This document shows positions 3,165 through 33,277 of a stretch of DNA of 33,277 nucleotides, piece after piece. A model generated the notes under the pieces. It had not been told where the DNA came from. It worked only from the letters and a program-made list of their open reading frames with translations, and did no database searches. This DNA is from a virus (Duplodnaviria > Heunggongvirae > Uroviricota > Caudoviricetes), in IMG/VR virus record IMGVR_UViG_2778261295_000004. The stretch is one strand, 5' to 3'. Position 1 is the stretch's first letter. Every line of letters begins with the position of its first letter. The position numbers were made by a program, and so were the translations under genes.

Positions 3165-4265
3165 TCATTCCATTTCGAAATCATCAATCCTCACTTCAAG
3201 CTCCAGACTGGTCGTAAAACCGTTATCCGGGCTGACGGTATGTGTCAGAGTCGTAATGGTCCATTCCGCATCATCTATCGGCTGTTTAAAACCACTGACT
3301 TTCACTGGCATTTCCGTGTAGAGATCCGCCCGCCCTTCTGCCAGTTGTAATGAGAATGACGCAACACCGCGTTGCAGGCGTTCCCACTGCATTTTCGCCG
3401 CTCGTTCGGCGTTGCTCCGGTTGGCATAAGTGCGATTAAGTACCAGCACGTTTTCATCCGTACCCACCAGGTAATCGCCCTGCTTCGCTTCCGGCTCTTT
3501 CTTCTGCTTCTTGGCCCTGCGCTTACGCTTCACTGTAGTGCTTTCTTTCTTCGTGGGTTCGCGGGTATGCAACCAGCTGGCAATTACGCCCGTGTAAGCT
3601 CCGCGATCCGCCAGGGTAAAGCGGTGACTGTCGCCGTCCTTACGTGTGATAGTGATCACCGACAGTGGTTTACCGCTGGCACTTTTACCCTGTCCCTGCC
3701 GGATGAATAACAGATTGCCATTTTTCACCGACGCAATAGCACCGTACTGGCGCGCCAGCCGCATCAGAAAACTACCGTCACTCTCATTAGTCTGGTCTAT
3801 ATGCTCCACGGGCTTATCCGACAGGTCTTTACCCAGTGCCATCTTCAGCTTGTGACGTGCGGCTATTTCCTTCACCACTTCCCCGACAGTGGTCTTGTGC
3901 CACGATTTTTCACGGCGGGTATTCAGCGTTTCCCTAAAATCAGCACTTCGCGCCCGGATAGTCAGGCGATCCGGTGCGCCAGTGTGTTCAATCTCGTCCA
4001 CCGTGAATGCCCCTTTCGGGAAAAGCGGCTGCCCTTTCCAGCCCAGCGCCAGCGTAATAACCGCACCACGGCGCGGCAGCACGATTTTTCCGTCGGCGTC
4101 GTCCAGCTCCAGATCAAGCTGGTCCGCTTCAAATCCCCGGTTATCCGTCAACGTCAGCCCCATCAGGCGGTTGTCCAGCACAGTGGTAATATCCCTGCCT
4201 TCAATACTGATGCTGAATGCCGGAGTTTTGTTGCCTTTGTTAACCAGTTCAGAGCTGAAATTCAC
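3165..4265 (-). CDS. D: Tail protein D (late control gene D)
   Basis: 366-aa ORF in the D position after U; GTG start overlaps the U stop (GTGA). Confidence 0.9.
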   Translation of the reverse strand: MNFSSELVNKGNKTPAFSISIEGRDITTVLDNRLMGLTLTDNRGFEADQLDLELDDADGKIVLPRRGAVITLALGWKGQPLFPKGAFTVDEIEHTGAPDRLTIRARSADFRETLNTRREKSWHKTTVGEVVKEIAARHKLKMALGKDLSDKPVEHIDQTNESDGSFLMRLARQYGAIASVKNGNLLFIRQGQGKSASGKPLSVITITRKDGDSHRFTLADRGAYTGVIASWLHTREPTKKESTTVKRKRRAKKQKKEPEAKQGDYLVGTDENVLVLNRTYANRSNAERAAKMQWERLQRGVASFSLQLAEGRADLYTEMPVKVSGFKQPIDDAEWTITTLTHTVSPDNGFTTSLELEVRIDDFEME

Positions 4266-10002: not shown

Positions 10003-10077
10003 AAGGCAGTCTCTCCGGTAGTAGAGGGGGTCTGCCTATGTTCTGGTTGATACGAGCAGGATGCACGTTATGTGGTT

Positions 10078-10095
10078 TGTATGAAAAATGGCACA
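10078..10095. promoter_or_regulatory. TGT-N12-ACA dyad upstream of FI (candidate Ogr-dependent late promoter element)
   Basis: tgt-atgaaaaatggc-aca, centred roughly 85 bp upstream of the FI start codon. The TGT-N12-ACA dyad is the activator element I recall for P2/P4 late promoters. Confidence 0.45.
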
Positions 10096-10134
10096 ACGGC
10101 GGATACAGGAATCCCCGCAGACGCGGGGATGTAT

Positions 10135-10569
10135 TCAGACTTCTGGTGATAAAGGCCAGACTATATCCGGGGCATCACTTACATTAATATTTTCAAGTAA
10201 CTCAAGATAATCCAGCATCGCATTAAATCTGGTTGTCTCCATTTCGTTCAGCCTGCCAAGCTGTAATTTTGATGGCCATTGTTTTTCATTAATCAGGTTG
10301 TTAGCCTCATTAATGCGCATCTGTTTCATCATTTCTGCCTGTTCCACCTGTTCCTCATGGGTCAATGGTGGACGTTCTTCCCATGATGGCTGGTTATCAG
10401 TGCCTGCAACCATTTTGTACCCTTCCCGATAACCAAGATAAAACTCCTGATAGACTGCATCACTTACCTCAATACAGTCATCCGGCCACGCATCGAGAGC
10501 ATCGTAATAATCAGATTTCAGTTCACTGTTATAAAATGCATTTCTTGATGGACTGTAAAAATAACTCAT
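10135..10569 (-). CDS. G: Tail fibre assembly protein G
   Basis: ORF immediately after tail fibre H; start refined to the ATG overlapping the H stop (TGATG); table ORF extends to 10602. Confidence 0.8.
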   Translation of the reverse strand: MSYFYSPSRNAFYNSELKSDYYDALDAWPDDCIEVSDAVYQEFYLGYREGYKMVAGTDNQPSWEERPPLTHEEQVEQAEMMKQMRINEANNLINEKQWPSKLQLGRLNEMETTRFNAMLDYLELLENINVSDAPDIVWPLSPEV

Positions 10570-12299
10570 CAGACCCCCTCCGCAATAAACCCAATATTCC
10601 ATCCACCGTTATCTCCGGTGATGCTCAGAGTAAAGCCAGTTGCAGTAATAGCTGTAATGGCGACACCCTCAACACTCCCACCGTGTGGCGAACGGAAAAC
10701 GGGGATCACGTACCAGCACTGACGGGCAAATGGTGTCGGAAAATTCACCTGATACTCTTTATTCACCACACCAGTTGCCCCGGGAAAATAACTGTTAAAA
10801 AACTGCTTCAGCACACCGCCAGTTATTCGGTGATAATTGCTGCCAAATGAAAATTCATCTTCACAAACACCCCGACGCCATAGTGTTGTATTGTCTTTAA
10901 CCGTATCAGAGCCGCTGAAACGGTGATACATTTCCCCTGCTCCGGTGATGAAAATCTGCGCGCGTCTGTTCTTGTTATACGCAGCCTGAAAACCTGCACC
11001 ATTCGATGGCACTTCATCTGCATTACCTGAATATGCAAGAAACTGTGAAACCTCACCCATTTCGTAGTTATTATTGCTACCGATTCCGTATGCTCCCTGT
11101 TGCAGAGCACTTTCAGCCTTATCAACCGTCGGTTTAAGTCCCAGATTCTGAATAAACAAAGTCGGGTCAGGAATATCAGCACCATTGCGGTCCTTTGCCA
11201 GTCTCGCGCTGGCGTTGTCCATCGCAATTTTTACCGCTTTCAATGTCGCCGCAACATTTTCTGACACGCTGTTTACATCGTTCCCCAGTTGCACCATTCC
11301 TTTAACACTCACTGATGCTTCTGGATAATGTGCACTGGTGAACACCTGATTCCACGGTGTTTCATCATCGGCAATTTTCGATAACATGCTGAATCGACAG
11401 TACATCTTGCCATCATTAGCGACATAAATCTGTGCACGTCGATTGTCGTTGTAACAGGCCTGGAAACCAGCACCATGTGTTGGCACTTCTGGATAGCCGA
11501 CAGCTGTACCATAAGCAAAAAATTGCGATTTGGTTCCCATGGTTTTCAGATAAGCCAGGCCAATTCCATAATCTCCTGGCTGAATCGCTGATGCAGCTTT
11601 ATCAACAGTCGTTTTCAATCCCAGATTCTGAACAAACAGTGCCGGATTGGGAATATCAGAACCATTGCGGTCTTTTGCCAGTCTGGCGCTGGCATTATCC
11701 ATCGCTATTTTCACTGCTTTTGGCGTTGCAGCGACTGTTTCATCATTGCTTTCCACACCGCTATACAGACGTACAAATCCCTTTTCTGTCAAAGACGCAG
11801 AAGGATGGAGGCGCGATTGCTCATGAATTTCTATTTGTTGATCTACATAATGACGGGTTGCCAGCACGACAGCAGGGTCGATTTTCAGGGTGATATTGTC
11901 CGTACTGCTGGTAATCAGCACCATGCGCACGGTCTGGGTGCGCCCGCTGCCTTCAGCCAGTTGTGGCTTATAGCTTTCCGGGCAGTTGCCCACGGCAATC
12001 AATGCCCCGGACTCATCAAACAGGCCCACTTCACGTATCCACCAACCGCCCTCGTTTTCTGGGATCACCTGTTCGGCAATAATCTGGCTGCTGTTCTGCG
12101 GGTCGATATAGAGCATATTCAGCGCAGCCCGGCGTTTCTCATTTACCAATGCTGTCTGCTTTGCGTCCGGCGTTGGCAATGTTCCGCCGCCATCGCCGAC
12201 CGCCATATGGGTAATTTTTAAAGGCACACCGAGCGCGGCGGCGCTGGCAAGTTTCGCCGCGCCAATATCCGTCAGCAGGGTATAAAATTTTGTGCTCAT
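10569..12299 (-). CDS. H: Tail fibre protein H
   Basis: 576-aa ORF after baseplate gene I; N-terminus has the conserved P2-like tail fibre anchor region; C-terminal half contains a tandemly duplicated module. Confidence 0.85.
   Translation of the reverse strand: MSTKFYTLLTDIGAAKLASAAALGVPLKITHMAVGDGGGTLPTPDAKQTALVNEKRRAALNMLYIDPQNSSQIIAEQVIPENEGGWWIREVGLFDESGALIAVGNCPESYKPQLAEGSGRTQTVRMVLITSSTDNITLKIDPAVVLATRHYVDQQIEIHEQSRLHPSASLTEKGFVRLYSGVESNDETVAATPKAVKIAMDNASARLAKDRNGSDIPNPALFVQNLGLKTTVDKAASAIQPGDYGIGLAYLKTMGTKSQFFAYGTAVGYPEVPTHGAGFQACYNDNRRAQIYVANDGKMYCRFSMLSKIADDETPWNQVFTSAHYPEASVSVKGMVQLGNDVNSVSENVAATLKAVKIAMDNASARLAKDRNGADIPDPTLFIQNLGLKPTVDKAESALQQGAYGIGSNNNYEMGEVSQFLAYSGNADEVPSNGAGFQAAYNKNRRAQIFITGAGEMYHRFSGSDTVKDNTTLWRRGVCEDEFSFGSNYHRITGGVLKQFFNSYFPGATGVVNKEYQVNFPTPFARQCWYVIPVFRSPHGGSVEGVAITAITATGFTLSITGDNGGWNIGFIAEGV
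10905..11300. repeat. Tandem duplicated module inside tail fibre gene H, copy 2 (approximate bounds)
   Basis: Second occurrence of the same roughly 130-aa module, diverged in sequence from copy 1. Confidence 0.6.
11370..11760. repeat. Tandem duplicated module inside tail fibre gene H, copy 1 (approximate bounds)
   Basis: Protein segment ...AVKIAMDNASARLAKDRNG(S/A)DIP(N/D)P(A/T)LF(V/I)QNLGLK...GAGFQA.YN.NRRAQI... occurs twice in gpH; this is the first occurrence in the protein. Confidence 0.6.
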
Positions 12300-14148: not shown

Positions 14149-14723
14149 ACCGGGCCTCCGGTTGTATCGCCGCCTTTCAGGACGCCAGTATGCTGATGCG
14201 CATCAACCACGATCCCGTTAGAACTCATCGCTCCGCCGCCCTGGGTAACGCCACCATTGATCACCACTTCGCTGTTAATGCGCGTGCGGTCAGCCTCCAG
14301 TACAAACTCACTGGTTTTCATGGTGATGTTGTCAGCAGCCTCAATGACCATTGATTTGATGCCCCTGACATACCAGCGCCCGGTGGCGGGTTCGTATTCA
14401 AACCAGCCACCGTCAGGATGTTCTGTCACGCAGGCGTCCGCCGACGTCGACGGTGGTGCGAACTGATTCGAATAGACAGCGGGCAGCGCAAAGGCGGTTT
14501 CCAGATTGCCGCCCAGACTCAGCAGCACCACCTGCTCACCTTCCGATGGTCGCCACCATGTACGGGCATTCCCGGCACGCAGCGTCAGCCAGCTGATCCA
14601 GTTGGTTTCAAGCTCGCCCGTTTTCACCCGGCAAAGCCAGTTTTCCCTGTCCACTTCGGTGACTACCCCTGTGCGGATCAGGTTGGTGATAAGGCGCATG
14701 ATTTCGGTTAATTGTGCGTTCAT
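14145..14723 (-). CDS. V: Baseplate spike/assembly protein V
   Basis: 192-aa ORF at the head of the V-W-J-I-H-G operon. Confidence 0.85.
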   Translation of the reverse strand: MNAQLTEIMRLITNLIRTGVVTEVDRENWLCRVKTGELETNWISWLTLRAGNARTWWRPSEGEQVVLLSLGGNLETAFALPAVYSNQFAPPSTSADACVTEHPDGGWFEYEPATGRWYVRGIKSMVIEAADNITMKTSEFVLEADRTRINSEVVINGGVTQGGGAMSSNGIVVDAHQHTGVLKGGDTTGGPV

Positions 14724-14769
14724 AGGGAAAGGTTGCCATCAGGGGAAGAAAGGCGGCAGTGCTGCAACT

Positions 14770-14787
14770 TGTATCAGTGCTGATACA
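14770..14787. promoter_or_regulatory. TGT-N12-ACA dyad upstream of V (candidate Ogr-dependent late promoter element)
   Basis: Near-palindromic tgt-atcagtgctgat-aca in the 68-bp gap between the S stop and the V start. Confidence 0.45.
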
Positions 14788-14791
14788 AAGA

Positions 14792-15238
14792 TCACCCCGC
14801 CAGCCATTGCAGAATCATGTCACGGGTCATTGCCTCAACATCATCATTTACACCCAGAAGGCGACGCTCTGCGTAACGCACCTCCGGTCCCTTACGACTG
14901 ACGCGATCTCGCAGGCCGTAATGGTGAACGCGGGCAATGCGCTGCACCTTGCCTTCAAACTGCACGCTGGCAGAGTCGGTGCTGGCGGCAGTTTTCAGGT
15001 ATTTTGTGGTGCGCAGCTTTGCAAACATCTGACGTTTGATACGGCCTTTTTTACTGCGTGCTGTTACCCGTCGCGGTTCATAGCTGCTGCCGTCAGGGTT
15101 GCGCTGCATCCTGATATTCTGCTGCTGTGTCCGGCGAAGTTCCTGCGCCAGCTGGCGCATCATGCGGCTTCTCGTGGCTGGTTCCAGATTCGCCAGCAAG
15201 GCACTCAGCCAGTCGTCCACCTTCTGCAGTTCAGCCAC
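14792..15238 (-). CDS. S: Tail completion protein S
   Basis: 148-aa ORF with GTG start overlapping the end of R; P2 order R-S-V. Confidence 0.8.
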   Translation of the reverse strand: MAELQKVDDWLSALLANLEPATRSRMMRQLAQELRRTQQQNIRMQRNPDGSSYEPRRVTARSKKGRIKRQMFAKLRTTKYLKTAASTDSASVQFEGKVQRIARVHHYGLRDRVSRKGPEVRYAERRLLGVNDDVEAMTRDMILQWLAG

Positions 15239-15662
15239 GTTTCACCGTCCACATTTCTTCAGGTGCATCAGGTTCCGCTATAGCTTCAACGCTCGACACA
15301 CTGCCGTCAGTGCTGACCAGCACACGCTCCGTCAGTTGCAGGTTCAGGCTGATATCACAGACATCGTTGCGCAGAATATCCACCTCAAAGGTGAATAGCT
15401 TTTCCCGTAACGCCGGGTTATTGATGGCATCGGGCTGGTTATCCCTCAGCCACAGCAAAACCGGGGCCATCAGCAGATTCTGGTCGCCGCTGAAATCCTC
15501 AATCACCGCGTTCAGTGTGTAACGGTACTCCCACGACATGGAGCTGGCTCCCGTGGCAACCAGCGAACCGTTATCCACAAACAGATGCAGTTTGTCCGGG
15601 TTATTGCGGACATAAGGCACCGCTTTATTGAGGGCGTGGCGCAGGGATTGTGGTTTGTTCAC
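15231..15662 (-). CDS. R: Tail completion protein R
   Basis: Start refined to an in-frame GTG preceded by AGGAG; the table ORF starts at an upstream TTG (15683). Confidence 0.8.
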   Translation of the reverse strand: MNKPQSLRHALNKAVPYVRNNPDKLHLFVDNGSLVATGASSMSWEYRYTLNAVIEDFSGDQNLLMAPVLLWLRDNQPDAINNPALREKLFTFEVDILRNDVCDISLNLQLTERVLVSTDGSVSSVEAIAEPDAPEEMWTVKRG

Positions 15663-15915
15663 TGTTTCGCTCCTGACACGCAATAATCATGTCCACTTTG
15701 TCTGCACAGACCGCCCAGGCGGCCTCCGTTTCATCCAGCAACGCGTTCAGATCACCGTTAGTGCGCGGCGTTGCCTGATCCAGCCGACACGGCGTCACTC
15801 GCGGACAACCACTGACGGTAAGCCATACCTCCGGTGAGTGCCGGACGTTTCCGCAGCCGGATAATGTCAGCAGGCAAAGGAGTATCAGCCCAGCGGCGTA
15901 AATCCTCGTTCTCAC
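15625..15915 (-). CDS. lysC: Outer-membrane spanin lipoprotein LysC (Rz1-like)
   Basis: 96-aa ORF with signal peptide and lipobox LTLSG-C; begins inside lysB in another frame and runs past its end; GTG start. Confidence 0.7.
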   Translation of the reverse strand: MRTRIYAAGLILLCLLTLSGCGNVRHSPEVWLTVSGCPRVTPCRLDQATPRTNGDLNALLDETEAAWAVCADKVDMIIACQERNSEQTTIPAPRPQ

Positions 15916-16186
15916 GTTTCAGTTCCTCGATCCGGTGTTGTCGTTGTCTCAGCAGCGTGCTGGTCTGTTCTGCTTCGGCATAGAGCCGCGCCTGCTCCCG
16001 GTTATTGGTTTCAGTCAGAATGGACAGGCTGATAAGCTGGCTATTGCTCTTTGCCAGTGCCTGGCTTTTGCTCTGCAGCTCGTCTGCCTGCGTGCTGATG
16101 GTCTGGCTGGCATCAGCCAGCCGCCACGTCTGCCAGCCCAGCGCCGCCAGTAATAACGTCAGCACAACCAGCGGCAACCGGTTCAT
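15758..16186 (-). CDS. lysB: Inner-membrane spanin LysB (Rz-like)
   Basis: 142-aa ORF with N-terminal TM segment and charged coiled-coil-like remainder; ATGA overlap with lysA. Confidence 0.75.
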   Translation of the reverse strand: MNRLPLVVLTLLLAALGWQTWRLADASQTISTQADELQSKSQALAKSNSQLISLSILTETNNREQARLYAEAEQTSTLLRQRQHRIEELKRENEDLRRWADTPLPADIIRLRKRPALTGGMAYRQWLSASDAVSAGSGNAAH

Positions 16187-16560
16187 GCTGCTACCTGTTG
16201 CGCCATCTGATTACGGGTGATCCAGAAGGCAATAACGGTCAGCAGATAAAAGACCAGGGTAATAGCCCACCCCGTCCAGGCGAGACTTACAACAATCAGC
16301 AATCGCATCACCCAACTGGTAAATACGTTTTCTTTTCGGGTAATTGTCTTCAGCAAAGATACCCTTAACTCCTGCCAGAGCGGGCCATTCTTAATTAACG
16401 CAGCCAGTGCTACCGGAATTACCGCCCATGTCAGCAAACAGGCTACCCAAACGCCGGACGCTGCCAGTACCGGAAAAATCCCCTGCGGATACACCATTGC
16501 TGCGATTAACAGCGCTATCCATAACATCAGAAACAGTCCGCTGATTAATTTCTTTTTCAT
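16183..16560 (-). CDS. lysA: Lysis accessory membrane protein LysA
   Basis: Multi-TM small protein; start refined to internal ATG (MKKKLISG...) with GGGAG upstream, one base after the K stop; table ORF extends to 16632. Confidence 0.7.
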   Translation of the reverse strand: MKKKLISGLFLMLWIALLIAAMVYPQGIFPVLAASGVWVACLLTWAVIPVALAALIKNGPLWQELRVSLLKTITRKENVFTSWVMRLLIVVSLAWTGWAITLVFYLLTVIAFWITRNQMAQQVAA

Positions 16561-16561
16561 T

Positions 16562-17074
16562 TCAGTTTGCTCCCTGTAAACACCAGGCCATCTCCCGCGC
16601 ACGGCGGTTATCCAGCCCCTGATTAAACACACCTTTCACATAAACCCAGCGCGGCAACTGTCGGCACGCATCCGCCCAGCGCCGCTGATTGAGCAATTTC
16701 ACCAGCGTGGAGCTGCAGGCATTGCCTGTCCCCACGTTGAAGGCAAACGACACCACCGAGTCATACACCTTTTGTGGCGGCTGTTGCTTCACACATCTTT
16801 CCAGCGCCCGCTCCACACGCAGCACGTTGGAGATAAGCCCTTCTGCTGCCTGTCGTTCCGTAATAATTTTGCCGGGAATGACGCCCGACGTATTACCAAT
16901 GCCGTCGGTCCAGACACCCGCGCTGCACTGATACGGCTGCAGACGACAGCCTTCGTAATCGGCGATCAGTTTCAGTCCCTCCACGGAGGTGTGAAGCTGC
17001 TGAAACCCCGGCAGCGTGGCAGCAATAGCCAGCACGGCCCCGACAAGGCAGCGTTTAACGATTGATGGATTCAT
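16562..17074 (-). CDS. K: Endolysin K (T4-lysozyme-like muramidase with N-terminal hydrophobic SAR-like segment)
   Basis: 170-aa ORF; E...D...T catalytic spacing in LIADYEGCRLQPYQCSAGVWTDGIGNT; hydrophobic N-terminus. Confidence 0.85.
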   Translation of the reverse strand: MNPSIVKRCLVGAVLAIAATLPGFQQLHTSVEGLKLIADYEGCRLQPYQCSAGVWTDGIGNTSGVIPGKIITERQAAEGLISNVLRVERALERCVKQQPPQKVYDSVVSFAFNVGTGNACSSTLVKLLNQRRWADACRQLPRWVYVKGVFNQGLDNRRAREMAWCLQGAN

Positions 17075-17270
17075 AGTCCTCCCGCGAGATCTGCCCGTCG
17101 CGCAGAAGCTGGTAGGCTTTGTGTTTGTAGTACCAGTTGATAGCCAGCATCAGCACACCGATCATCAGGCCGCCCAGCGTTGAGGCATCCTTGATGGACA
17201 AATCGCCCAGCCAGGCCAGCACGACGGCGATGCAATACGTGATAAAGGCGCTGATTCGCTCAAGCGTCAT
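17055..17270 (-). CDS. Y: Holin
   Basis: 71-aa ORF with two hydrophobic segments and a charged C-terminus, immediately upstream of the endolysin. Confidence 0.7.
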   Translation of the reverse strand: MTLERISAFITYCIAVVLAWLGDLSIKDASTLGGLMIGVLMLAINWYYKHKAYQLLRDGQISREDYESINR

Positions 17271-17273
17271 AAT

Positions 17274-17477
17274 TCAGTCCCATAGCTGGACGGTCTGCAC
17301 GGTGGTGGTCGTCGGAATGTCCGGCAGCTCCACCTGCAGCCCGTGAGGTAAAAAGGGGCTGTATTCGGCAAGCCCCGGATTTGCCTTCAGTACCTGCTCC
17401 GTGACACCCTGCGTGCGCCCGTAATGACGCCAGCAAAGTGCGTCCACCGTGTCATACTGATGCGCACGCACTTTCAT
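17274..17477 (-). CDS. X: Tail protein X
   Basis: 67-aa ORF; ATGA overlap with L; position L-X-holin. Confidence 0.8.
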   Translation of the reverse strand: MKVRAHQYDTVDALCWRHYGRTQGVTEQVLKANPGLAEYSPFLPHGLQVELPDIPTTTTVQTVQLWD

Positions 17478-17941
17478 CAGATAAGCTCCACTGTGCAGTG
17501 CGGCGCATCCTGCACCCGGCTGATGGCCCAGCGGGCGTCACGCCATAAATCACCGCTTGCTTCCGCCAGTTCCTCGCCTCGCTTCGCACCGGATGCCGTG
17601 GCGTCATAGTCCTGGTAACGTTCGTTGAGCATGGCGCGTGCCCAGCAGTAAACCGCGTTGAAATAGTGCTGAATGCGCTCGCTTTTGCCGTCCAGTTGTT
17701 CCGCCGGGACTTCTGCCAGCGAGGCATACCCCAGCATCTGCTGGCGTCTGCGAAACTCATACAGCTCTGCGTTGACCTCCGAAATTGCCGACAGCGCAAC
17801 CTGCTTTAAACGCGGCTGCGTCACCGTGCCGTCAGTGCGCATGACACTGCGAAACTCCGACAGGTCCACATCAGGCCAGAACGGCGTATTTCTAATGATT
17901 TCCGCCTGTTCCGGTGCCTGTTCTGGCGCAACAAACTTCAT
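17477..17941 (-). CDS. L: Head completion protein L
   Basis: Start placed at ATG 17941 preceded by AGGAGA; an alternative GTG start at 18004 (table ORF) lacks a clear Shine-Dalgarno. Confidence 0.8.
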   Translation of the reverse strand: MKFVAPEQAPEQAEIIRNTPFWPDVDLSEFRSVMRTDGTVTQPRLKQVALSAISEVNAELYEFRRRQQMLGYASLAEVPAEQLDGKSERIQHYFNAVYCWARAMLNERYQDYDATASGAKRGEELAEASGDLWRDARWAISRVQDAPHCTVELI

Positions 17942-18036
17942 GCTGCTTTCTCCTGAAATAAAGGGCGGTGGACGGGGTTTTGATGTGGCAGTGCCTTTCG
18001 CCACCCCGTGCCGCCCGTGCGCGGGGGCACGTTCTG

Positions 18037-18687
18037 TCAGCGGCTGTCATTGCGCAGTCTGCGCTCCAGCTGCTGTTTGTCTTTTTTCACGCCACAGCGG
18101 GGATCGAGCTGTAACGCATGGTTGAGATGATTAAGGGCGGAAGCCGGATTGCTTTCACTCAGGACAGCGCCAATCGCTTTATGCAGACGCGCCCGTGACT
18201 GGTCCGGCATATCCAGACCGTCTGTCAGCTCCAGCGTCTGCAGCAACAGATCGACATCAAAGCCGGTGGCGGCAAGCATTGCGCTCTGCGCAGCGTCTGC
18301 CATTTCCTCTGCCAGCACGGTCTGCACATTGCGATTACCCAGCGGCATCACCCAGCCATGACGCAGGGCATGACGCCCGATCTGCAGCGCCCCGGCATAA
18401 TCTCCGGCATCAATGCGCCACAGCATCACGTACATCAGCACGTCATCCTGTTGAGCGCCTCCGGCAGCCAGGACACCCTCTGCCCAGGCGGCGTATTTCG
18501 GCAGCAGCTCCACCTTGATTTCCGCTTTTTTGACCGTGGACTGAACGCCCTTGAGACGGCGGCGGTCTTCCGCCAGTTGCAGCAGCATCAGGTCATAGCC
18601 CGACGCGTGGCGAACACTGCCACCCTCGCGGGCGGCCTGTTCAGCCTGAACGCGCAGGCGATGCTGCCGTGCGGGACTCAGGCTCAT
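18037..18687 (-). CDS. M: Terminase endonuclease (small) subunit M
   Basis: 216-aa ORF after capsid gene N; P2 order O-N-M-L. Confidence 0.85.
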   Translation of the reverse strand: MSLSPARQHRLRVQAEQAAREGGSVRHASGYDLMLLQLAEDRRRLKGVQSTVKKAEIKVELLPKYAAWAEGVLAAGGAQQDDVLMYVMLWRIDAGDYAGALQIGRHALRHGWVMPLGNRNVQTVLAEEMADAAQSAMLAATGFDVDLLLQTLELTDGLDMPDQSRARLHKAIGAVLSESNPASALNHLNHALQLDPRCGVKKDKQQLERRLRNDSR

Positions 18688-23550: not shown

Positions 23551-24249
23551 TTATTTGTTTCTTCTTTGTTCACGCCTTGTCTTGGCTTCGATAAGGCGTT
23601 GAGGTTCAGTGTAAAGCCGTTCTAAAAAAAGATAGGTAAAATCTTCAAGATCCTCAGCAGCAGCTTTATCCAAAATACCTTCATGCGCGCCATCATTTCC
23701 GTCATCTTTAACGCATTCAGCTAGTTCCCTTAAAGCTTCAGGCAATAGATGATTATCAAATAACCAATCCATTCTTAACCCTAGGCTTCTCCTTATTTTT
23801 TGCGCAGGCCCTTGCTCCCCATCAGGAAGAAGTCCTTTTGTTGCATAATCAAGGCAAAGCCTAAACATGGTTGCTGCTGCATTATAACAACCAATAGCCA
23901 AACATTTCGCCCCTTCCTCATATGCACTATTGATATGCTCAGGTAAGAACTCTGGCGGCTCCTCTACTGCTAAGTCTGCCGGTGATATAGGCCTAACAAC
24001 CTCTGCAACTTCCTTTAAGCCGAATATTCCACTTTCCCAATTATAGCCATCTAAAGTTTTATTTTTCGTTAAAGGTCTGCAAAGAAACATTGTCGTTTTA
24101 TGACACTCTCGGCAAACACAATAGACCTCGTATTCGTATGTTTTACCCCCGCCCAATGCATTGTAAACCCTAGTGCAATTCAGCCCATTAACATCAAACG
24201 CTATTTTTTGTGATCCACATCGTGGACAGTCATCCACTAACATAACCAT
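23551..24249 (-). CDS. Cargo protein: N-terminal zinc ribbon plus C-terminal DUF4145/HEPN-like domain (candidate abortive-infection or defence effector)
   Basis: 232-aa ORF with strong GGGAGGAG Shine-Dalgarno; Cys motifs CPRC and CVCREC near the N-terminus; C-terminal ...LRELAECVKDDGNDGAHEG... resembles the GN-x-x-AH core of DUF4145 as I recall it; AT-rich compared with flanking phage genes. Confidence 0.55.
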   Translation of the reverse strand: MVMLVDDCPRCGSQKIAFDVNGLNCTRVYNALGGGKTYEYEVYCVCRECHKTTMFLCRPLTKNKTLDGYNWESGIFGLKEVAEVVRPISPADLAVEEPPEFLPEHINSAYEEGAKCLAIGCYNAAATMFRLCLDYATKGLLPDGEQGPAQKIRRSLGLRMDWLFDNHLLPEALRELAECVKDDGNDGAHEGILDKAAAEDLEDFTYLFLERLYTEPQRLIEAKTRREQRRNK

Positions 24250-24359
24250 GTCAATTGCTCCTCCCTATGAAAAAAATGAGTTGAAAAATTGAATATTCAC
24301 GACTTAAAAAGCTAGCCTATTTAACACCATAATTTCATTAATTCAACCATGAGCGCGCG

Positions 24360-24378
24360 CTCGTATCCCCGCCACGCC
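24360..24378 (-). other. Candidate cos cohesive-end core
   Basis: Minus strand reads GGCGTGGCGGGGATACGAG, matching in its first 13 nt my recollection of the 19-nt P2/186 cohesive end (GGCG(A/T)GGCGGGGAAAGCA...); adjacent perfect palindrome GAGCGCGCGCTC at 24351-24362. Confidence 0.4.
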
Positions 24379-24427
24379 TGCCCGCTTTGTGTAGTGGTTT
24401 TCATGCAGGTGCCTGATCCACGCAAAA

Positions 24428-24450
24428 GCCCGCCAGTTCTGGCGGGCCTT
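24428..24450 (-). terminator. Intrinsic terminator downstream of the 372-aa cargo gene
   Basis: gcccgccag / ctggcgggc stem followed on the minus strand by TTTTG; lies about 65 bp past the stop of the 24514..25632 gene. Confidence 0.5.
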
Positions 24451-24513
24451 AGCAAAAACGATCCTCAAACGGTCATGCAAATTCAGGCAGCATAGGCATG
24501 CACTGTTGTTAGG

Positions 24514-25632
24514 TTAGTTCGTAATGCCAATTTCCTTCAAAACTTTAGCCATTTCCGTCTGACTTAACTTGTTCCTGAACAAAGGGAAATTTTTCATTTT
24601 TTCCGCTCGTTGCCCTTTTGAAATAGTAATCTTTCCTGATGCTGATAACTCAGAGTCAAAAAAATAACATATTGTTGAATTTGAATTCTCCATATTTGAC
24701 TTGATACAATTCCATATGCTTTCTTTTTTCATTTCACACATTCTAGGACCAAAAATGATCCCTTTAACAACATTAGCATCATGATGAAAAATATGTCCAA
24801 TATTTCGATTTACGCGTCTTTGAACATGCCGCTCACTCCCTATTCCTGCATTTGCCTCTGGAATAAACATTCGATATTCAGCTTCATATCTCCAAAATCT
24901 ATTTTTAGTTAAAAATAACTCTGCAACATTTGCGCTTGGGTCTAGAAGTGAAACCTCTTTAGCCTGATTACTATATTTTATTTGCTTAACTGGAAAATTA
25001 AATTTATCTGATGAAAATAAATTTTCTCTTAGCTTCATTCCAGGATGTGGCACGCCATTAATATTAAAATCCTGCGTTTCATAAATCACAACACAACCAC
25101 TAAAGCCTGCAGCATAATGCGCCCACATCATACGATCTAACGCATTAGCTGAAAATGACACACTGAATACTGCAGGAACTATTTTCCTATACAACCTTTC
25201 TTTGATACTGTTCTCGCAAAGTGAGACCAAAAATTGGCGTGGTTCAGGAATATTCCCATAAATAGCGGAATTAATCACATTGATAGGTAGTAAACCATCA
25301 TTTATGATCTTACGTATCTCATCAACGTGTGAGTCAAACAGGCTATCTAATGACTCAATGCTACTTTTTATTTTTTTTCCTCTAAAAATACGATTCAATC
25401 CCTTATGTATCTTCAAATTACTCAAATCTAATATGTGACTCAAATTTTCATAGGATTTATCGCAAGGAGAACGCAATAAAATATCCCATAATTTCAATTT
25501 ATTATCAAAACGATAATCTATATTGAGATCATTAGGATCATTCAATTGCGCAGGAGCGGAAAAATATAATTCATTATAACGAATAGCTTTCTCGAAGAAG
25601 AAGTCCGGACGGTAATACTTGAAAAGATACAT
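24514..25632 (-). CDS. Cargo protein with DUF2971-like N-terminus (candidate anti-phage or abortive-infection protein, function unknown)
   Basis: 372-aa ORF, ATG start; N-terminal LFKYYRPDFFFEKAIRYNELYFSAPAQLNDPND resembles the DUF2971 signature as I recall it; strongly AT-rich and Asn/Lys/Ile/Phe-rich unlike the phage backbone. Confidence 0.55.
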   Translation of the reverse strand: MYLFKYYRPDFFFEKAIRYNELYFSAPAQLNDPNDLNIDYRFDNKLKLWDILLRSPCDKSYENLSHILDLSNLKIHKGLNRIFRGKKIKSSIESLDSLFDSHVDEIRKIINDGLLPINVINSAIYGNIPEPRQFLVSLCENSIKERLYRKIVPAVFSVSFSANALDRMMWAHYAAGFSGCVVIYETQDFNINGVPHPGMKLRENLFSSDKFNFPVKQIKYSNQAKEVSLLDPSANVAELFLTKNRFWRYEAEYRMFIPEANAGIGSERHVQRRVNRNIGHIFHHDANVVKGIIFGPRMCEMKKESIWNCIKSNMENSNSTICYFFDSELSASGKITISKGQRAEKMKNFPLFRNKLSQTEMAKVLKEIGITN

Positions 25633-26723: not shown

Positions 26724-29102
26724 TTAATACAGATCCCGCCACTTATCATCTTCCTGCAAACGCTGGTTCCGATAGAAGATACGCAGGCCTGCTCCTGACG
26801 GAATACTGCCGCCGCGAAGGAGTAAATCGACCTCTTTCTCGCTGCCATCAAATCCTCTGGACTTCAGTTCATAGACGAGCTGCTGTCGTTGATGGTCTGT
26901 AATTCGCTGTTTGTAGTCTCTACGCCGTTTCGGTTTCACCAGGCGTAACCTTGCAGCCAGTTCCCGGCGTTCTTTTTTGTTCATACTGTGCAGGTAATCG
27001 TGCAACTCCTTGTCATCCATACGGGTGATATCCGTTCTGGTATCCCCATCAGCTGATTTGTCTTTCCCTTGTTGGTACAAATTTTCAGCAAGGGGACAGT
27101 TATTGCCACGAGTCCGAGTCCAAGGGGCGCAAGCGCCCTGGTCGGCTGCCGCCTCCTGAACATCAACGGCCTTACGAACCATTTTCCACTTCACGGCATG
27201 AGTGCAGATCTTGCCCTCTGCAATAGGTGACCAGATGCCATAAATACGAATGCCGTGATCGCCATAGGCGGTCGGCTCTTCGTTGATTTCATAAGCGGTT
27301 CTGATGAGGTGATATTTGCGGGGAACCAGTACGCCGCCCTGCTTCATGATGTAGGTGGCAAAACAACCAGCATCAGCAGCAGCCAGGATGGCATCAAGGC
27401 GCGGGTTATCCAGTACCGGCGCACCTGCTTTTTTGTCCCCCTGTTGCCTTGCCGCCTGACCAGCCAGCAATCGCAGTTCACGGTAAGCCTGACGCCCCGG
27501 AATGCCAAAGAAGCGGAATTGCTGAACACGATGCAGAGACGCCCAGGCATTAACGTATTCAGCATTATCACGCAGGGATTTCCCCGTTTCCTTGCTGATC
27601 TCGCCAGCCAGACCACGCCCGTCAATGTTCTTACTGATGTATTTCGCGATGTAGCTTGTTGGCGTACCTTTGCGCGGGTTAATCAACTCAGACTTAAAGC
27701 GCGGCCCAGTGTTATTGCCCAGTTCCTCGCGGTCTTCACGGATGGCAAACTTACGCAGTAATGCAGTGATGGCGCGGCGGTCTTTTTTGCGCATAAAACA
27801 CAACAGGTGCCAGTGAACTGTACCGTCATGATGCGGCTCAGCCACCCGCACGCCATACCACCGCAATCCGGCTTTGTGCATCGCCTTACGAAATGCAGCA
27901 AACATGCCGACCAGATAATCACTGCTTTGTCTTACCGTCGCATTTGTCCAAGTTGGGTTGGGCCTGCCATTATTTAGCGTGGAATGGAAACGTGACGGAC
28001 AGGTGATGGTGTAGAAAACGGCGCAGTCACCGCGCATTTCCGCGATAAGCTCCAGGCCTTTAACACAGGCCATCATCTCATTGCGGCGATGCGCAGGGTT
28101 GCTGCTGCTGGCGTTTACCACATCCTCCATGTCCAGCGTGTCGCCGTCTTCGTTCACCAGTTCATGAGAACGAAAAAACTCCAGCGACTTACGGCGCTGC
28201 TCACGTTTATGCATCACGGCTTCATAGCTGACATAGGGAGATGCTTTTTTGCTGACCAGGCAGACAGCACGCAACTGCTCTTCCCGCCATTCGCAACGCA
28301 TCTTCCATAATTTCCGGTACCACCAGTCAGCGCACAACATACGCGCCAGCGAACCCGGAATGAGTTCATAGGGCACGGGTTTACGGCGGTTTCTTTTCCG
28401 GCGGAGTTGCTCAAACGCAGGCGGGATGACATCCAGACGCAGGGTTTCCGCTGCCACCTTTTCCCATGTCTTGCGGATTTCTTCTGGCTTAACGTCATCG
28501 GTGACATACAAATCGCCACAAGCTGCATCAAGGCACATGCTCATATGCGCAGCTACCAGGGTGGACAGGCGTTTCACCTGATCCTGACTCATTTCAGGCA
28601 GGATCAGCAGGCCGTCCAGCCCTTCATGGCTTGCCATAAAGCGAAAAGAAGTGGATAGCTGACAGTCGCGTACATGCTCCAGCCGTTCCAGACATGGCTT
28701 AATCGTCTCACGCAAATAGCGGGAATAAGCCTTTGGCCTGCCCAGGCTGCTGAAGTATTCAATACGTTGCATCAGTGGCTTGCTGATATGGGAAGGCTGG
28801 GCATTAACGTCCGCCAGAATGACCATATCTGGATTAAAACGCTGCTGCTCATGCGCCAGCTTTGCCCGACTAATGAGCTTATCCTGCTCCATTTCGCGCT
28901 GGACAGGATCACGGGATTCATTAAAGAAATAACGCTCCCAGACCTGATCACTCAGTGCCTCGCGGCGCAGCTGTTCCTGCTCGTTATCGGCAGCGTACAG
29001 AGCGATCAGGTTTGAAAGCGCAGAAACTGAAGATTGCTCTTCCGTCTCTACGTAAGGATTGATTGCTTTTTTCTCAGCATTCCAGGAATAGCTGTAGTTC
29101 AT
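26724..29102 (-). CDS. A: Replication initiation protein A (rolling-circle endonuclease)
   Basis: Large ORF containing ...[18 protein letters not shown]... and ...[12 protein letters not shown]... motifs typical of P2 gpA-family initiators. Start placed at ATG 29102 (GGAGA upstream, TAATG overlap with the upstream gene); table ORF extends to 29153. Confidence 0.9.
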
Positions 29103-29932
29103 TACGCAATCTCCAGTTCGAGCTGTGAAGGCTGCAAACCATTCGACAGCCAATCAGAAACTGAAGGTGGGCGAACAGCTTCAATTGCACCTTTTAAAAT
29201 TGCGCAACGGTTTTTCAGAATGACAGCTTTCAGCTCCTTTTCCGTCAGATTGCGCGAATACTCAGCCTCCTGAATAGCCCGCGTCAGCTCAGGATATTTG
29301 CTATTAAATTTGGGGACATTGCAGGCAAGATTTGTACTGTCGGCAGTCGCCAGTGGGTAATTTCCCAACACACGACCGTCAAGCATGCGCAAACCATGAA
29401 CAGCTGTTTTGAAATTGTGTCGGCAATAAATTGCTTCAAAAGCGTCCTGCATACGACGATGCCAGTGCGCAGTTCTGATAGCCGCATATTCACCAGACGA
29501 TCCAAAGCAGACACGAGGCCATTCACGACATAGCTCGATAAGCCGATCGATTGACTCGTGCAGATGCCAGACGGGAGTTGCCTTCCCGTAGAACATTTTC
29601 GGAACTTCGTTTATCAGGGCATCATTGTCACGTTCACCTCCGTCCACAACATCAGGAATGACAAAAAAAGCGACCTTAGGATGGTGGTAATAGTTCAGGA
29701 GCCATTTATAAAAATCACTCCAGTTAATTTTTAGCCCACGCACCCATGCAGAAAATGCGCCGTTATCAATGCCGACGACCTGAGCGTGCTGAATGGACGC
29801 CGCAATCTGATCTGGTCGTACATAGGAGACGAAAGCGCCAGCTCCGCTCACCGCAATACGATGAACGTCGCCAGCACTTCCCCAGACAGGCGTCCCATGG
29901 AAATGATGAATTCCGTGGTGCATTTCTTTCAC
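29102..29932 (-). CDS. Hypothetical protein between dam and A
   Basis: 276-aa ORF, GTG start overlapping the dam stop (alternative ATG at 29923); translationally coupled on both sides. Confidence 0.5.
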
Positions 29933-30783
29933 ACTTGCACCCCGAAAATAACAGTAGAGTCACGTCCCCTACTAAAATCGGCACTAAACCAATTAGCAGA
30001 TTTAGTGGCAATCATCTCTGTTGCAAATTTTCCCTCCCCCGCTGCAACGCCGATGCTGCGTTTCGCCCTGATGTAGTGGTGAGTGAAATTACGATAAAGG
30101 GACCGGGTCAAAGACGTGTTACTGTTAGAAACAATGACCGGATGTCCTTCTGATGACCGATGTTCAAGAATGGATGCCAGGTGATACTGATCATCTTCAG
30201 TGAAACCATCAGTGTGATAGCCGGAAAACGTACCGTCATAAGGCGGATCGCAATACACCACATCCCCCACCTTCAACATCGCCAGCGTTTCATCAAAGCT
30301 GGCGCAGATAAACGTTGCCCGCTGGGCTTTCTCTGCAAATGCGCGAATTTCTTTTTCAGGGAAATACGGATTTTTATAATTACCGTAGGGAATGTTGAAA
30401 TGCCCGCTCTTGTTATAGCGACATAAACCACGGTAACCGTGACGATTGAGATACAGGAAATATACCGCTTTCATGAAATCAGTAATTTCAGTGGAGTAAT
30501 TAAACTCCTGCCTTATGTTGTAATAAGCCACCTCCCTGTTTGCTTCCTCAAATAAAGCTCTGGCACGAGATATAAACGCCTCACAATCAGCAGCAACCTT
30601 TTTATAGAGGTTGATTAAATCAGGATTAATATCCGCAACAAGATAGCTGGGGTAATCCGTCTCCATCATCACTGCACAGGAACCCGCGAAAGGTTCAACC
30701 AGTCGCGGGCCAGCAGGAAGATGCTTTTTCAGTTCGGACATTATGGCGGTTTTATTTCCTGCCCATTTCAGGATGGTGCTCAT
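29929..30783 (-). CDS. dam: DNA adenine methyltransferase (Dam family)
   Basis: Start refined to ATG ([11 protein letters not shown]...) with GGAGGTG upstream; contains the ILKWAGNK and DPPY motifs of Dam-type N6-adenine methyltransferases. Confidence 0.85.
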
Positions 30784-32362: not shown

Positions 32363-32584
32363 TCAATTGATTACGACATTGGAATCGGCAAGCGCATCCA
32401 CTGTCATGGCTGCAATGTTGATCATTACCTTTTCACGTTTTTTATCCTTGCGAAGACGATGCCGCTTAAGGCGTCCATCTGCGAGCATACTGTTGATAGT
32501 GTCTACAGATAACCCTGTGAGTTCACTGTACTTTTCAACCGAAATGGATGGGACAGCTAATGTGATTGAAATGTGCTGAGTCAT
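32363..32584 (-). CDS. Excisionase / lytic-switch repressor (Apl/Cox-like)
   Basis: 73-aa basic protein with helix-turn-helix-like segment (SVEKYSELTGLSVDTINSMLADGRL), first gene of the operon divergent from cI; AGGAGA Shine-Dalgarno. Confidence 0.65.
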   Translation of the reverse strand: MTQHISITLAVPSISVEKYSELTGLSVDTINSMLADGRLKRHRLRKDKKREKVMINIAAMTVDALADSNVVIN

Positions 32585-32635
32585 AAGGCAACATCTCCTG
32601 TTTAAGTGTGTTTAACATTGACGAGTAGTTGTAAG

Positions 32636-32709
32636 TCACATTTTGAAATCAATGCGACTATAAGATCACAAATTGAAATCGTCAACCATAAAGTTCACAA
32701 GGTGAAATC
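32636..32709. promoter_or_regulatory. Three direct repeats TCACA-N3-TGAAATC in the cI / apl switch region (candidate operator sites)
   Basis: Copies at 32636-32650, 32666-32680 and 32695-32709, spaced 30 and 29 bp; the third overlaps the cI ribosome-binding site. Confidence 0.5.
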
Positions 32710-32710
32710 G

Positions 32711-33277
32711 ATGGATTTTAGTCAAGGTGGAAAGAAAGCTATCGAAAGGATGGTTGAAGCCTATGGGTTCACTACAAGACAGGCGTTATGTGAACAACTA
32801 GGCATATCAAAAAGCAGTCTTGCTACACGCTACATGAGAGATTCATTCCCTTCTGATTGGGTTATTCAGTGCGCGCTCGAAACAGGAGTAAACATAAAGT
32901 GGCTGGTAACAGGCTTACCTCCTAAACATGAATATTTAACGTCTGACATCATCAATATTCAAAAAATAAAATTGATTGATGGAGTGCTATTGGATGCAGG
33001 AACACTAATGTTTGACAAAGTGTTCATTCCTGATGGTTTATCATCACCATCTGTGATATCAAACGGGAATAACTCTTATTTTATTGAGAGGGATTTCACA
33101 GATGTAGTTGATGGTGATTGGTTAATCTCCATTGATGGAAAGCATTCTATAAAACAAGTTATTAGAATTCCTGATAATAAAGTTAAGATTAACTATGGGA
33201 ATATCATTGTTGATATGAACATTAATGACCTTGTATTCATCGGCAAAGTTATAGCAGAATTCAAGATAAGAGGCTAA
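32711..33277 (+). CDS. cI: Immunity repressor CI (186-type)
   Basis: Start placed at ATG with AAGGTG upstream (table ORF starts at GTG 32606); N-terminal HTH-like segment (TTRQALCEQLGISKSSLATRYMRD), divergent from apl/cox; stop codon is the last three bases of the window. Confidence 0.7.
   Translation: MDFSQGGKKAIERMVEAYGFTTRQALCEQLGISKSSLATRYMRDSFPSDWVIQCALETGVNIKWLVTGLPPKHEYLTSDIINIQKIKLIDGVLLDAGTLMFDKVFIPDGLSSPSVISNGNNSYFIERDFTDVVDGDWLISIDGKHSIKQVIRIPDNKVKINYGNIIVDMNINDLVFIGKVIAEFKIRG

Follow-up and report, generated by a model that had tools for sequence, protein, structure and literature searches.

A five-gene host-lysis module in a P2-like prophage with a predicted P1 Lyz-type SAR endolysin, a probable pinholin and overlapped spanin genes

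The lysis genes of phage P2 lie between the tail genes X and R in the order X-Y-K-lysA-lysB-lysC-R. Y is described as a holin of type I that possesses three transmembrane domains (TMDs; PMC3091744), and K is a soluble, lambda-R-like enzyme without an N-terminal TMD. The spanin genes of P2 are typical of the “overlapped” architecture, in which the gene for the outer-membrane spanin (o-spanin) begins inside that for the inner-membrane spanin (i-spanin), in another frame, and ends beyond it, whereas lambda Rz/Rz1 represent the “embedded” (nested) architecture (PMC6139136; PMC3091744). The lysozyme of phage P1, Lyz, belongs to a subtype with the motif Glu-8X-Cys-5X-Thr, where Cys replaces Asp, and its catalytic Cys is kept in a disulfide until activation (PMC3556154). 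Within the Peduoviridae, the Haemophilus phage HP1 encodes the enzyme Lys, classed as a signal-anchor-release (SAR) endolysin on the grounds of lysis when expressed alone in E. coli and of Sec-dependent phage release from H. influenzae, together with the holin Hol, which killed cells without beta-galactosidase release and was needed for lysis in Haemophilus (PMC7312051). Here, these systems are compared with a locus in the IMG/VR virus record IMGVR_UViG_2778261295_000004 (Caudoviricetes), a stretch of 33,277 nt analysed at full length and referred to as the window. Positions 15625-17270 on its minus strand carry what we take, at a probability of about 0.85, to be the host-lysis module of a P2-like (Peduoviridae) prophage, comprising five genes. 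The cassette is an ordinary one, already annotated and described in the literature.

The module occupies the same place as in P2 and keeps the same order of holin, endolysin, LysA, LysB and LysC, all on the minus strand. Its upstream boundary is the tail gene for gpX (17274..17477, minus; PF05489, E=1.7e-33; 60% identity to P2 X), and its downstream boundary is the tail completion gene for gpR (15231..15662, minus; PF06891, E=6e-46; 53% identity to P2 R), whose GTG start falls within the 3' end of lysC and whose coordinates agree with the annotation of relatives. The five genes between them encode a class II holin of 71 residues with two TMDs, a probable pinholin (17055..17270); a putative SAR-type GH24 lysozyme of 170 residues (16562..17074; PF00959); a membrane protein of the P2 LysA family with 125 residues and about four TMDs (16183..16560; phrog_162, NF038378); the i-spanin LysB, an Rz equivalent of 142 residues (15758..16186; TIGR03495, phrog_89); and the o-spanin LysC, an Rz1 equivalent with a 96-residue precursor and a GTG start (15625..15915; NF038368, PF23793). 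Open reading frames (ORFs) in alternative frames are common in the window, so an open frame alone is little proof and the profile matches decide. All five cassette ORFs are intact and each of the five proteins has a profile match above a curated cut-off, which argues that the ORFs are not chance. The gene identities, family memberships, gene architecture and endolysin cysteine pattern of the cassette are directly established, and the coordinates and gene calls that an earlier, sequence-only reading had proposed for the five genes proved right.

That reading had also described the genes as packed with overlapping starts and stops. This holds for three of the four internal junctions, where the holin and endolysin genes overlap by 20 nt, lysB starts on the lysA stop with a 4-nt ATGA overlap, and lysB and lysC share 158 nt. 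It does not hold for endolysin and lysA, which are separated by a 1-nt spacer (TGA-A-ATG). At the downstream boundary, lysC overlaps the gpR gene by 38 nt, exactly as far as P2 lysC extends into R. Predicted promoters and terminators inside the cassette are about as frequent as in shuffled sequence (2 for 1.6 expected, and 5 for 3.4), a scan of positions 14500-18500 with Rfam at E-values up to 0.1 gave no match, and tRNA genes were not found in the window. With no sign of separate regulation from promoters, terminators or Rfam elements, the cassette fits an internal position in a late operon, as in P2.

What sets the window apart from P2 is the pair of genes at the front of the module. Neither its holin nor its endolysin is related to the P2 proteins Y (93 residues, phrog_175) and K; their places are taken by a class II holin and by a lysozyme of the P1 Lyz type with a predicted SAR segment. 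The sampled Peduoviridae are mosaic in this respect. P2 and PSP3 carry Y and soluble K. In the window phage, MLG42, ST512-KPC3phi13.6, EtG and YenM_06.16-2, the pair consists of a class II holin with about 71-73 residues and a lysozyme with about 170, and Pseudomonas and Burkholderia relatives carry other holin/endolysin pairs. LysB and LysC are kept in all sampled members of the family.

Judged by their sequences, LysB and LysC are a two-component spanin pair with the overlapped architecture known from P2; lipobox and TMD assessments throughout this analysis draw on hydropathy, a PROSITE-type lipobox pattern and homology. LysB matches the phage_LysB equivalog TIGR03495 with 172.8 bits (cut-off 92.75) and the “Rz-like spanin” family phrog_89 with E=8e-45, and is 35% identical to P2 LysB. 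An N-terminal TMD at about residues 4-19 is followed by a charged periplasmic domain rich in Gln, Glu and Arg, which is read as helical by analogy with its family. The protein has no cysteines, whereas P2 LysB has two near its C-terminus. LysC matches the P2_Rz1 equivalog NF038368 (121.9 bits; cut-off 27) as well as PF23793 (58.4 bits; cut-off 27), and shares 42% identity with P2 LysC over residues 1-92, both proteins being 96 residues long. Its signal peptide, MRTRIYAAGLILLCLLTLSG, precedes C21, with R2 and R4 in the n-region. The lipobox ILLCLLTLSG-C21 fits the PS51257-type pattern of PROSITE, which bears out the lipobox LTLSG-C proposed earlier, and the +2 residue is Gly22 rather than Asp, an outer-membrane sorting signal. 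Mature LysC comprises 76 residues with seven prolines and four further cysteines (C37, C43, C70 and C80), all four of which P2 LysC has as well. Given a cysteine-free LysB and four cysteines in mature LysC, covalent spanin links would be possible only within or between LysC subunits.

The lysC gene lies in the +1 frame relative to lysB and runs 133 nt past the lysB stop. It was rightly said to start inside lysB in a different frame and to extend past its end; the accompanying description of the spanin genes as nested has to be given up, since a gene that ends beyond lysB is overlapped, as in P2, where the two genes share 146 nt. Counting from an in-frame stop, no start is possible before the GTG at 15915, and GAGGA lies 8 nt upstream of it; the GTG also sets lysC apart from its P2 counterpart. 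Full-length LysC, at a coverage of at least 80%, was found by tblastn in 236 phage records, including P2 lysC, at identities down to 37%. When the frame was re-read in Yersinia phage MLG42, Klebsiella phage ST512-KPC3phi13.6, EtG, PSP3, P2 and Pseudomonas phage Dobby, it was open from a start inside lysB and contained the lipobox Cys in each case. Among close IMG/VR relatives, 76 of 77 keep the full-length frame, LTLSG-C and the GTG start. Annotated lengths elsewhere are 38 residues in NC_049342, 57 in KP12 and MLG42, and 82 with a CTG start in the E. coli RM10740 chromosome, and the gene is absent from the annotation of Klebsiella phage 4LV2017. The short versions lose all or most of the signal peptide. 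Homology to P2 LysC makes the 96-residue GTG-start form the supported one, and the sequence-only call of this form improves on the database annotations compared.

Three lines of evidence support the endolysin well as a SAR enzyme of the disulfide-isomerisation subtype known from P1 Lyz: its homology, a cysteine conserved within the N-terminal membrane segment, and the match of its predicted fold to P1 Lyz. It matches PF00959 with 133 bits, and its closest solved relative is P1 Lyz (1XJT, E=5.5e-26); other relatives in the PDB are 3HDE (R21, E=1e-16) and 4ZPU. The catalytic triad is E41-x8-C50-x5-T56 with C43 as the predicted caging partner, and the stretch EGCRLQPYQCSAGVWT aligns with P1 EGCRRDPYMCPAGVWT. 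The E-D-T catalytic region named in the sequence-only reading is therefore an E-C-T motif, and the predicted mode of activation becomes the disulfide type of P1 Lyz. Across the endolysin family, the position aligned to C50 is C or D. Seven cysteines are present, at positions 9, 43, 50, 94, 120, 137 and 165. Among 34 homologues of 79-98% identity, C9, C50, C94, C120, C137 and C165 are invariant and C43 is kept in at least 90%. An odd number of seven fits three disulfides plus one free catalytic thiol.

P1 Lyz (1XJT, 1XJU) is the best match of the window enzyme in both sequence and fold. The two share an N-terminal SAR-type segment with a cysteine, the E-x8-C-x5-T spacing, a second Cys two residues past the Glu and several further conserved cysteines. 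Differences concern the identity in the fold alignment, which is about 34-36%, and the length, the window endolysin being shorter and lacking an insertion of about 11 residues near residue 117. They also concern the position of the SAR cysteine, which is C9 at the N-terminal edge of the segment. In P1 Lyz, the cysteine of the SAR segment is Cys13 and the caging one Cys44, followed by Cys51, residue numbers reportedly going back to Xu et al. 2005. The genomic settings differ as well, as P1 lyz is unlinked from lydA (PMC9025707) and the window endolysin adjoins its holin in a P2-type cassette. HP1 Lys is 34% identical to the window endolysin and has the same E-C-C-T pattern and SAR Cys. R21 of phage 21 (3HDE), a significant relative in structure and sequence, has E-D-T instead, and refolding is its sole means of regulation, disulfide caging being absent.

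The start of the endolysin gene is at the ATG at 17074, which is preceded by a GGGAGGA Shine-Dalgarno sequence. A shorter form of 157 residues annotated in KY271398 was rejected, as it would drop K7, R8 and C9 and is contradicted by GGGAGGA and by the conservation of residues 1-13.

The holin has two TMDs, at about residues 6-22 and 32-48, joined by a short loop and followed by a charged C-terminal tail with a net charge of +1. We read it, with somewhat better than even confidence and on the strength of family membership and gene neighbourhood, as a pinholin. It matches PF16080, “HP1 family holin”, with 36.7 bits (cut-off 28.8) and phrog_20 with 93.7 bits, and HP1 Hol, which behaved like a pinholin in experiments (PMC7312051), belongs to the same PHROG. 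HP1 Hol also resembles the window holin in having no dual start and in overlapping the endolysin gene. The window gene has a single start, with an in-frame stop directly upstream and M36 as the next Met, so there is no dual-start antiholin of the phage 21 kind. In eight divergent phages with a homologous holin, comprising five Peduoviridae, two Autographiviridae and one lambdoid-like Yersinia phage, the next gene encodes an endolysin with a weakly hydrophobic N-terminal TMD in all eight cases; Cys-type and R21-like E-D-T-type enzymes both occur among them. The overall format agrees with phage 21, which likewise combines a two-TMD class II holin of about 70 residues, a SAR lysozyme and a two-component spanin; it differs in that S21 has a dual-start antiholin and in that Rz1 is fully embedded in Rz.

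Several observations weigh against a pinholin. Similarity to HP1 Hol is not significant by pairwise BLAST (E=0.92), the link to the HP1 family coming from profile methods only, and the match to PF04971 (P21 holin S) reaches 23.2 bits, below the cut-off of 26; membership in the S21 family was accordingly rejected on the gathering threshold. Pairwise BLAST against P2 Y gives a marginal E=0.001. The first TMD (TMD1) is 35% Gly, Ala, Ser and Thr (GAST) with a Kyte-Doolittle value of 2.12, as compared with 50-65% GAST and 0.7-1.3 for TMD1 of HP1 Hol and of the holins of Ep4 and C171, two relatives from the Autographiviridae; Hessa-scale values, which are approximate, were also used in this comparison. 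With a TMD1 this hydrophobic, its exit from the membrane in the manner of phage 21 is not obvious. A smaller possibility is that a holin with such an unusually hydrophobic TMD1 triggers by a topology change unlike that of S21.

The same observations lend themselves to another account, in which the protein would be a canonical large-hole holin and the SAR endolysin would be freed by the collapse of membrane potential that any holin brings about, the situation with P1 LydA/Lyz or with lambda S105 combined with R21. Expression assays of hole size have been reported for HP1 Hol (PMC7312051) and P1 LydD (PMC9025707). SAR endolysins do function with large-hole holins (PMC9025707), and a heptamer model of an identical holin from Klebsiella phage KP12 has been published, with a low-confidence predicted local distance difference test (pLDDT) score of about 51 (PMC9902359). 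Set against this are the PHROG shared with HP1 Hol, the fact that all eight sampled homologues have a SAR-type endolysin as partner and none a soluble one, the clearly SAR-like TMD1 of relatives in the same family, and the size of 71 residues with two TMDs, which is the format of the phage 21 pinholin. On balance a large-hole holin seems possible but doubtful, and the pinholin partner that had been suggested for the SAR enzyme stays plausible on account of phrog_20 and the SAR-type neighbours, with the fairly hydrophobic TMD1 as the point against it.

The N-terminus of the endolysin calls for a similar weighing. The membrane segment comprises residues 9-24, CLVGAVLAIAATLPGF, and follows K7-R8, in agreement with the hydrophobic N-terminal segment seen earlier. 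It contains 7 GAST residues out of 16 (44%) at a mean Kyte-Doolittle value of 2.11 and resembles the TMDs of HP1 Lys and of the Ep4 and C171 endolysins. A GAST-rich TMD of 16 residues after K7-R8 fits the SAR domain as described in PMC9239132; by that paper, the decisive mark of such an enzyme is an uncleaved segment that tethers it in inactive form until depolarisation or a pinholin frees it. The layout of an n-region (K7, R8), a 13-residue h-region and a Pro-Gly turn would also suit an ordinary cleaved Sec signal peptide, with the enzyme secreted into the periplasm rather than tethered; cleavage by signal peptidase I may be conceivable, for example after L21-P22-G23. In the HP1 homologue, SignalP called residues 1-22 a signal peptide (PMC7312051). 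Since that paper classes the protein so called as a SAR endolysin, a SignalP or TMHMM call would not decide the question here.

We consider a cleaved peptide very unlikely. C9 is invariant among the close homologues, and a Cys in the TMD or at its N-terminal edge is found in 34 of 36 distant homologues that have an N-terminal TMD and the E-C-C-T pattern; these 36 are representatives of 50%-identity clusters and mutually related, so that they cannot be counted as independent samples, although their TMD sequences are very diverse. Conservation of an N-terminal cysteine would be pointless in a peptide that is cleaved off, and without C9 the C43-C50 cage could not open. Many endolysin relatives without a TMD have E-L-C-T, E-L-D-T or E-C-C-T. 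Furthermore, P1 Lyz still has its homologous segment in 1XJT, the crystal structure of the active enzyme, to which the window endolysin aligns from residue 13 onwards, a position inside the segment. An AlphaFold model of the window endolysin (mean pLDDT 74.9) packs residues 11-30 against the body at pLDDT 81-91. Its best fold match in the PDB is 1XJT, with a template-modelling (TM) score of 0.74 over 175 columns, nearly the full length of both proteins, and the next matches include the SAR endolysins DLP12 RrrD and R21. Two further points count against the assignment as SAR endolysin of the P1 Lyz subtype: the confidence of the model is moderate, with the hairpin at residues 46-68, which includes C50 and T56, below about 50 pLDDT, and C9, found where the TMD meets the cytoplasm, is out of register with P1 Cys13, whose counterpart in the alignment is L15. 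Taken together, the homology to P1 Lyz, the conserved cysteine in the N-terminal segment and the fold match to 1XJT uphold the SAR endolysin proposed in the sequence-only reading; non-cleavage of the segment, release from the membrane and disulfide exchange would follow by analogy with the characterised relatives.

Lysis by this module would then proceed as follows. The late head/tail operon L-X-holin-endolysin-lysA-lysB-lysC-R-S would be transcribed with the lysis genes as an internal part. The 170-residue lysozyme would be exported by Sec, a route proposed by analogy, and held at the inner membrane by its N-terminal SAR segment in a dead state, its catalytic Cys50 locked in a disulfide with Cys43. 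Meanwhile, the 71-residue class II holin would build up in the membrane and depolarise it at a set time, most likely through small “pinholes”, a size again suggested by relatives. On loss of the proton motive force, the SAR segment would exit the bilayer, and the released Cys9 would attack the Cys43-Cys50 disulfide to set Cys50 free, the active form being predicted to carry a Cys9-Cys43 disulfide. The endolysin would refold and degrade the cell wall, as in P1 Lyz. A complex of LysB in the inner membrane and LysC, an outer-membrane lipoprotein, would then disrupt the outer membrane, and LysA would act as a non-essential four-TMD modulator of timing.

LysA belongs to phrog_162 (147 bits), the PHROG that also holds the LysA proteins of P2 (227 bits) and EtG (183 bits), and matches NF038378 with 121 bits (cut-off 40). 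Pairwise BLAST against P2 LysA is marginal (E=0.014), the two being related at profile level only. The P2 record describes LysA as “nonessential; affects timing of lysis”, and the literature treats P2 LysA as an antiholin (PMC3091744). An accessory role in lysis timing, possibly as antiholin, may be assumed for the window protein by analogy. Of 80 IMG/VR loci, 14 with endolysins 97-99% identical to that of the window lack the gene (L048, L062, L063, L065, L067-L069, L071, L076-L079 and L081, at about 3507-3513, and also L075), and there lysB begins 5 nt past the endolysin stop. PSP3 and YenM_06.16-2 are without lysA as well. This absence from near-identical cassettes and from the two phages marks LysA as an accessory, dispensable module. 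LysB in the lysA-less loci is a different allele, 77-83% identical. A more specific and distinctly tentative idea, which we consider improbable, is that LysA is not a generic antiholin but a swappable, dispensable tuner of SAR endolysin or pinholin release, for instance through a stabilising effect on the tethered state or on the inactive form of the holin. Such a tuner would explain why LysA keeps the same position with the large-hole holin and soluble endolysin of P2 and with a class II holin and SAR endolysin, and why it comes and goes among cassettes with 97-99% identical endolysins.

Close copies of the cassette are widespread. Its nucleotide identity is 97.5-97.7% to Escherichia phage 500465-1 and Klebsiella phage 4LV2017, both Peduoviridae, and 100% to the RM10740 chromosome, where the Prokaryotic Genome Annotation Pipeline (PGAP) names all five products (HP1 family phage holin, lysozyme, DNZ54_00345 family protein, lysB and lysC). 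At least 80% of the cassette is found in 775 of 5426 complete E. coli genomes, or about 1 in 7. Relatives of the endolysin are encoded on more than 590 IMG/VR contigs, the best 80 being 96-99% identical. These best 80 loci, at 96% identity or more, are informative for polymorphism and not for deep conservation, which was taken from a search of representative proteins and from tblastn against phages. HP1 itself has a different arrangement, with its cassette after the tail tube gene, no LysA and no annotated LysC, and with orf25 weakly LysB-like (PMC7312051).

The same cassette is present in Klebsiella phage KP12 as peg.316-320, at about 97.5% nucleotide identity and with a holin identical to that of the window (peg.320; 100%), an endolysin of 97.6% identity, and LysA, LysB and LysC of 96.8%, 93.7% and 94.8%. 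The cassettes of KP12, 4LV2017, 500465-1 and RM10740 differ from the window in annotation details only. The KP12 authors described a P2-type cassette with overlapped i- and o-spanins and aligned an AlphaFold model of the endolysin to 1XJT (TM-align 0.83, SAR domain conserved; PMC9902359). They also reported a spot-lysis test of the purified enzyme, on which the paper is inconsistent as to whether activity was verified (PMC9902359), a point that detracts from the case made here. Another Peduoviridae genome announcement lists a class II holin, a SAR endolysin and i- and o-spanins (PMC12697156). The KP12 record (L096, OM835953) is filed under Vequintavirinae, and the paper reports 397 genes and two different lysis cassettes, as well as cloning primers for the endolysin of which the forward one is identical to that of KP1 (PMC9902359). 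The KP12 clone with the cassette is a 34.8-kb P2-like genome. “KP12” may thus be a mixture including an induced prophage.

Fusions form another part of the observed variation. Endolysin-LysA fusions of 276-296 residues make up about 40 of the 120 endolysin clusters closest to the window enzyme. The stretch concerned is 16562-16632 in the window, at the 3' end of the endolysin gene and upstream of lysA. The LysA frame is open for 24 codons upstream of the LysA ATG, and in the fusions P0005, P0014 and P0019 the junction fits the deletion of a single G, each in a different G run within the last 15 or so codons. A genuine endolysin-LysA fusion was considered and seems less likely, since single-G deletions explain the three examined junctions and most of the clusters are singleton assemblies; the fusions are probably errors or pseudogenes. 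P0014 occurs on 30 contigs, unlike the mostly singleton fusion clusters. Further fusions among the endolysin clusters join holin to endolysin and endolysin to a gpD-like protein.

It is highly improbable that a defective prophage has left the cassette behind as a non-functional remnant that no longer drives lysis. In favour of a relic are the state of the window, an integrated prophage adjoining the host genes grxA, ybjM and a ybjL-like permease gene, and the frameshifted endolysin-LysA fusions and deletion fusions found among close homologues. Against it, the five ORFs are intact here, the cassette proteins are intact across the 80 IMG/VR relatives at amino acid identities of mostly 92-100% (LysB 78-99%), and cassettes nearly identical to this one are carried by the isolated phage KP12 and by phages whose records were deposited as complete genomes.

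Elsewhere in the window, positions 1-2664 are host chromosome and not prophage. They contain genes for a glutaredoxin (grxA, 1-258), YbjM (288-665, minus) and an Asp-Al_Ex/TrkA-C permease (ybjL-like, 935-2620). Similarity to 4LV2017 starts at 2665, which places the prophage end or attachment site near there. Stretches without a megablast match to 4LV2017 are 10053-11840 in the tail-fibre region, and 29028-30016 and 32531-33277 in the early/regulatory region; these are probably mosaic segments for host range and regulation. A variable region beside the portal gene carries two cargo genes (23551-25632, minus). One encodes a DUF4145 protein of 232 residues with a weak match to PD-T7-4, and the other a DUF2971 protein of 372 residues that falls into the candidate defence family PDC-S31 (80.9 bits). 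In 4LV2017, their place is taken by the effector and reverse transcriptase of retron St85.

The locus matters little for discovery, being a common module that carries annotation already, and P2-like phages whose cassettes combine a class II holin and a SAR endolysin with overlapped spanins have been described before. The predicted regulation of the P1 Lyz type does matter for recombinant “enzybiotic” use, where Cys9, Cys43, Cys50 and the redox state would control activity. In the database records compared, LysC is cut short or omitted, and the 96-residue GTG form is the one supported by homology. Finally, the presence or absence of lysA in near-identical cassettes offers a ready natural comparison for the function of LysA.

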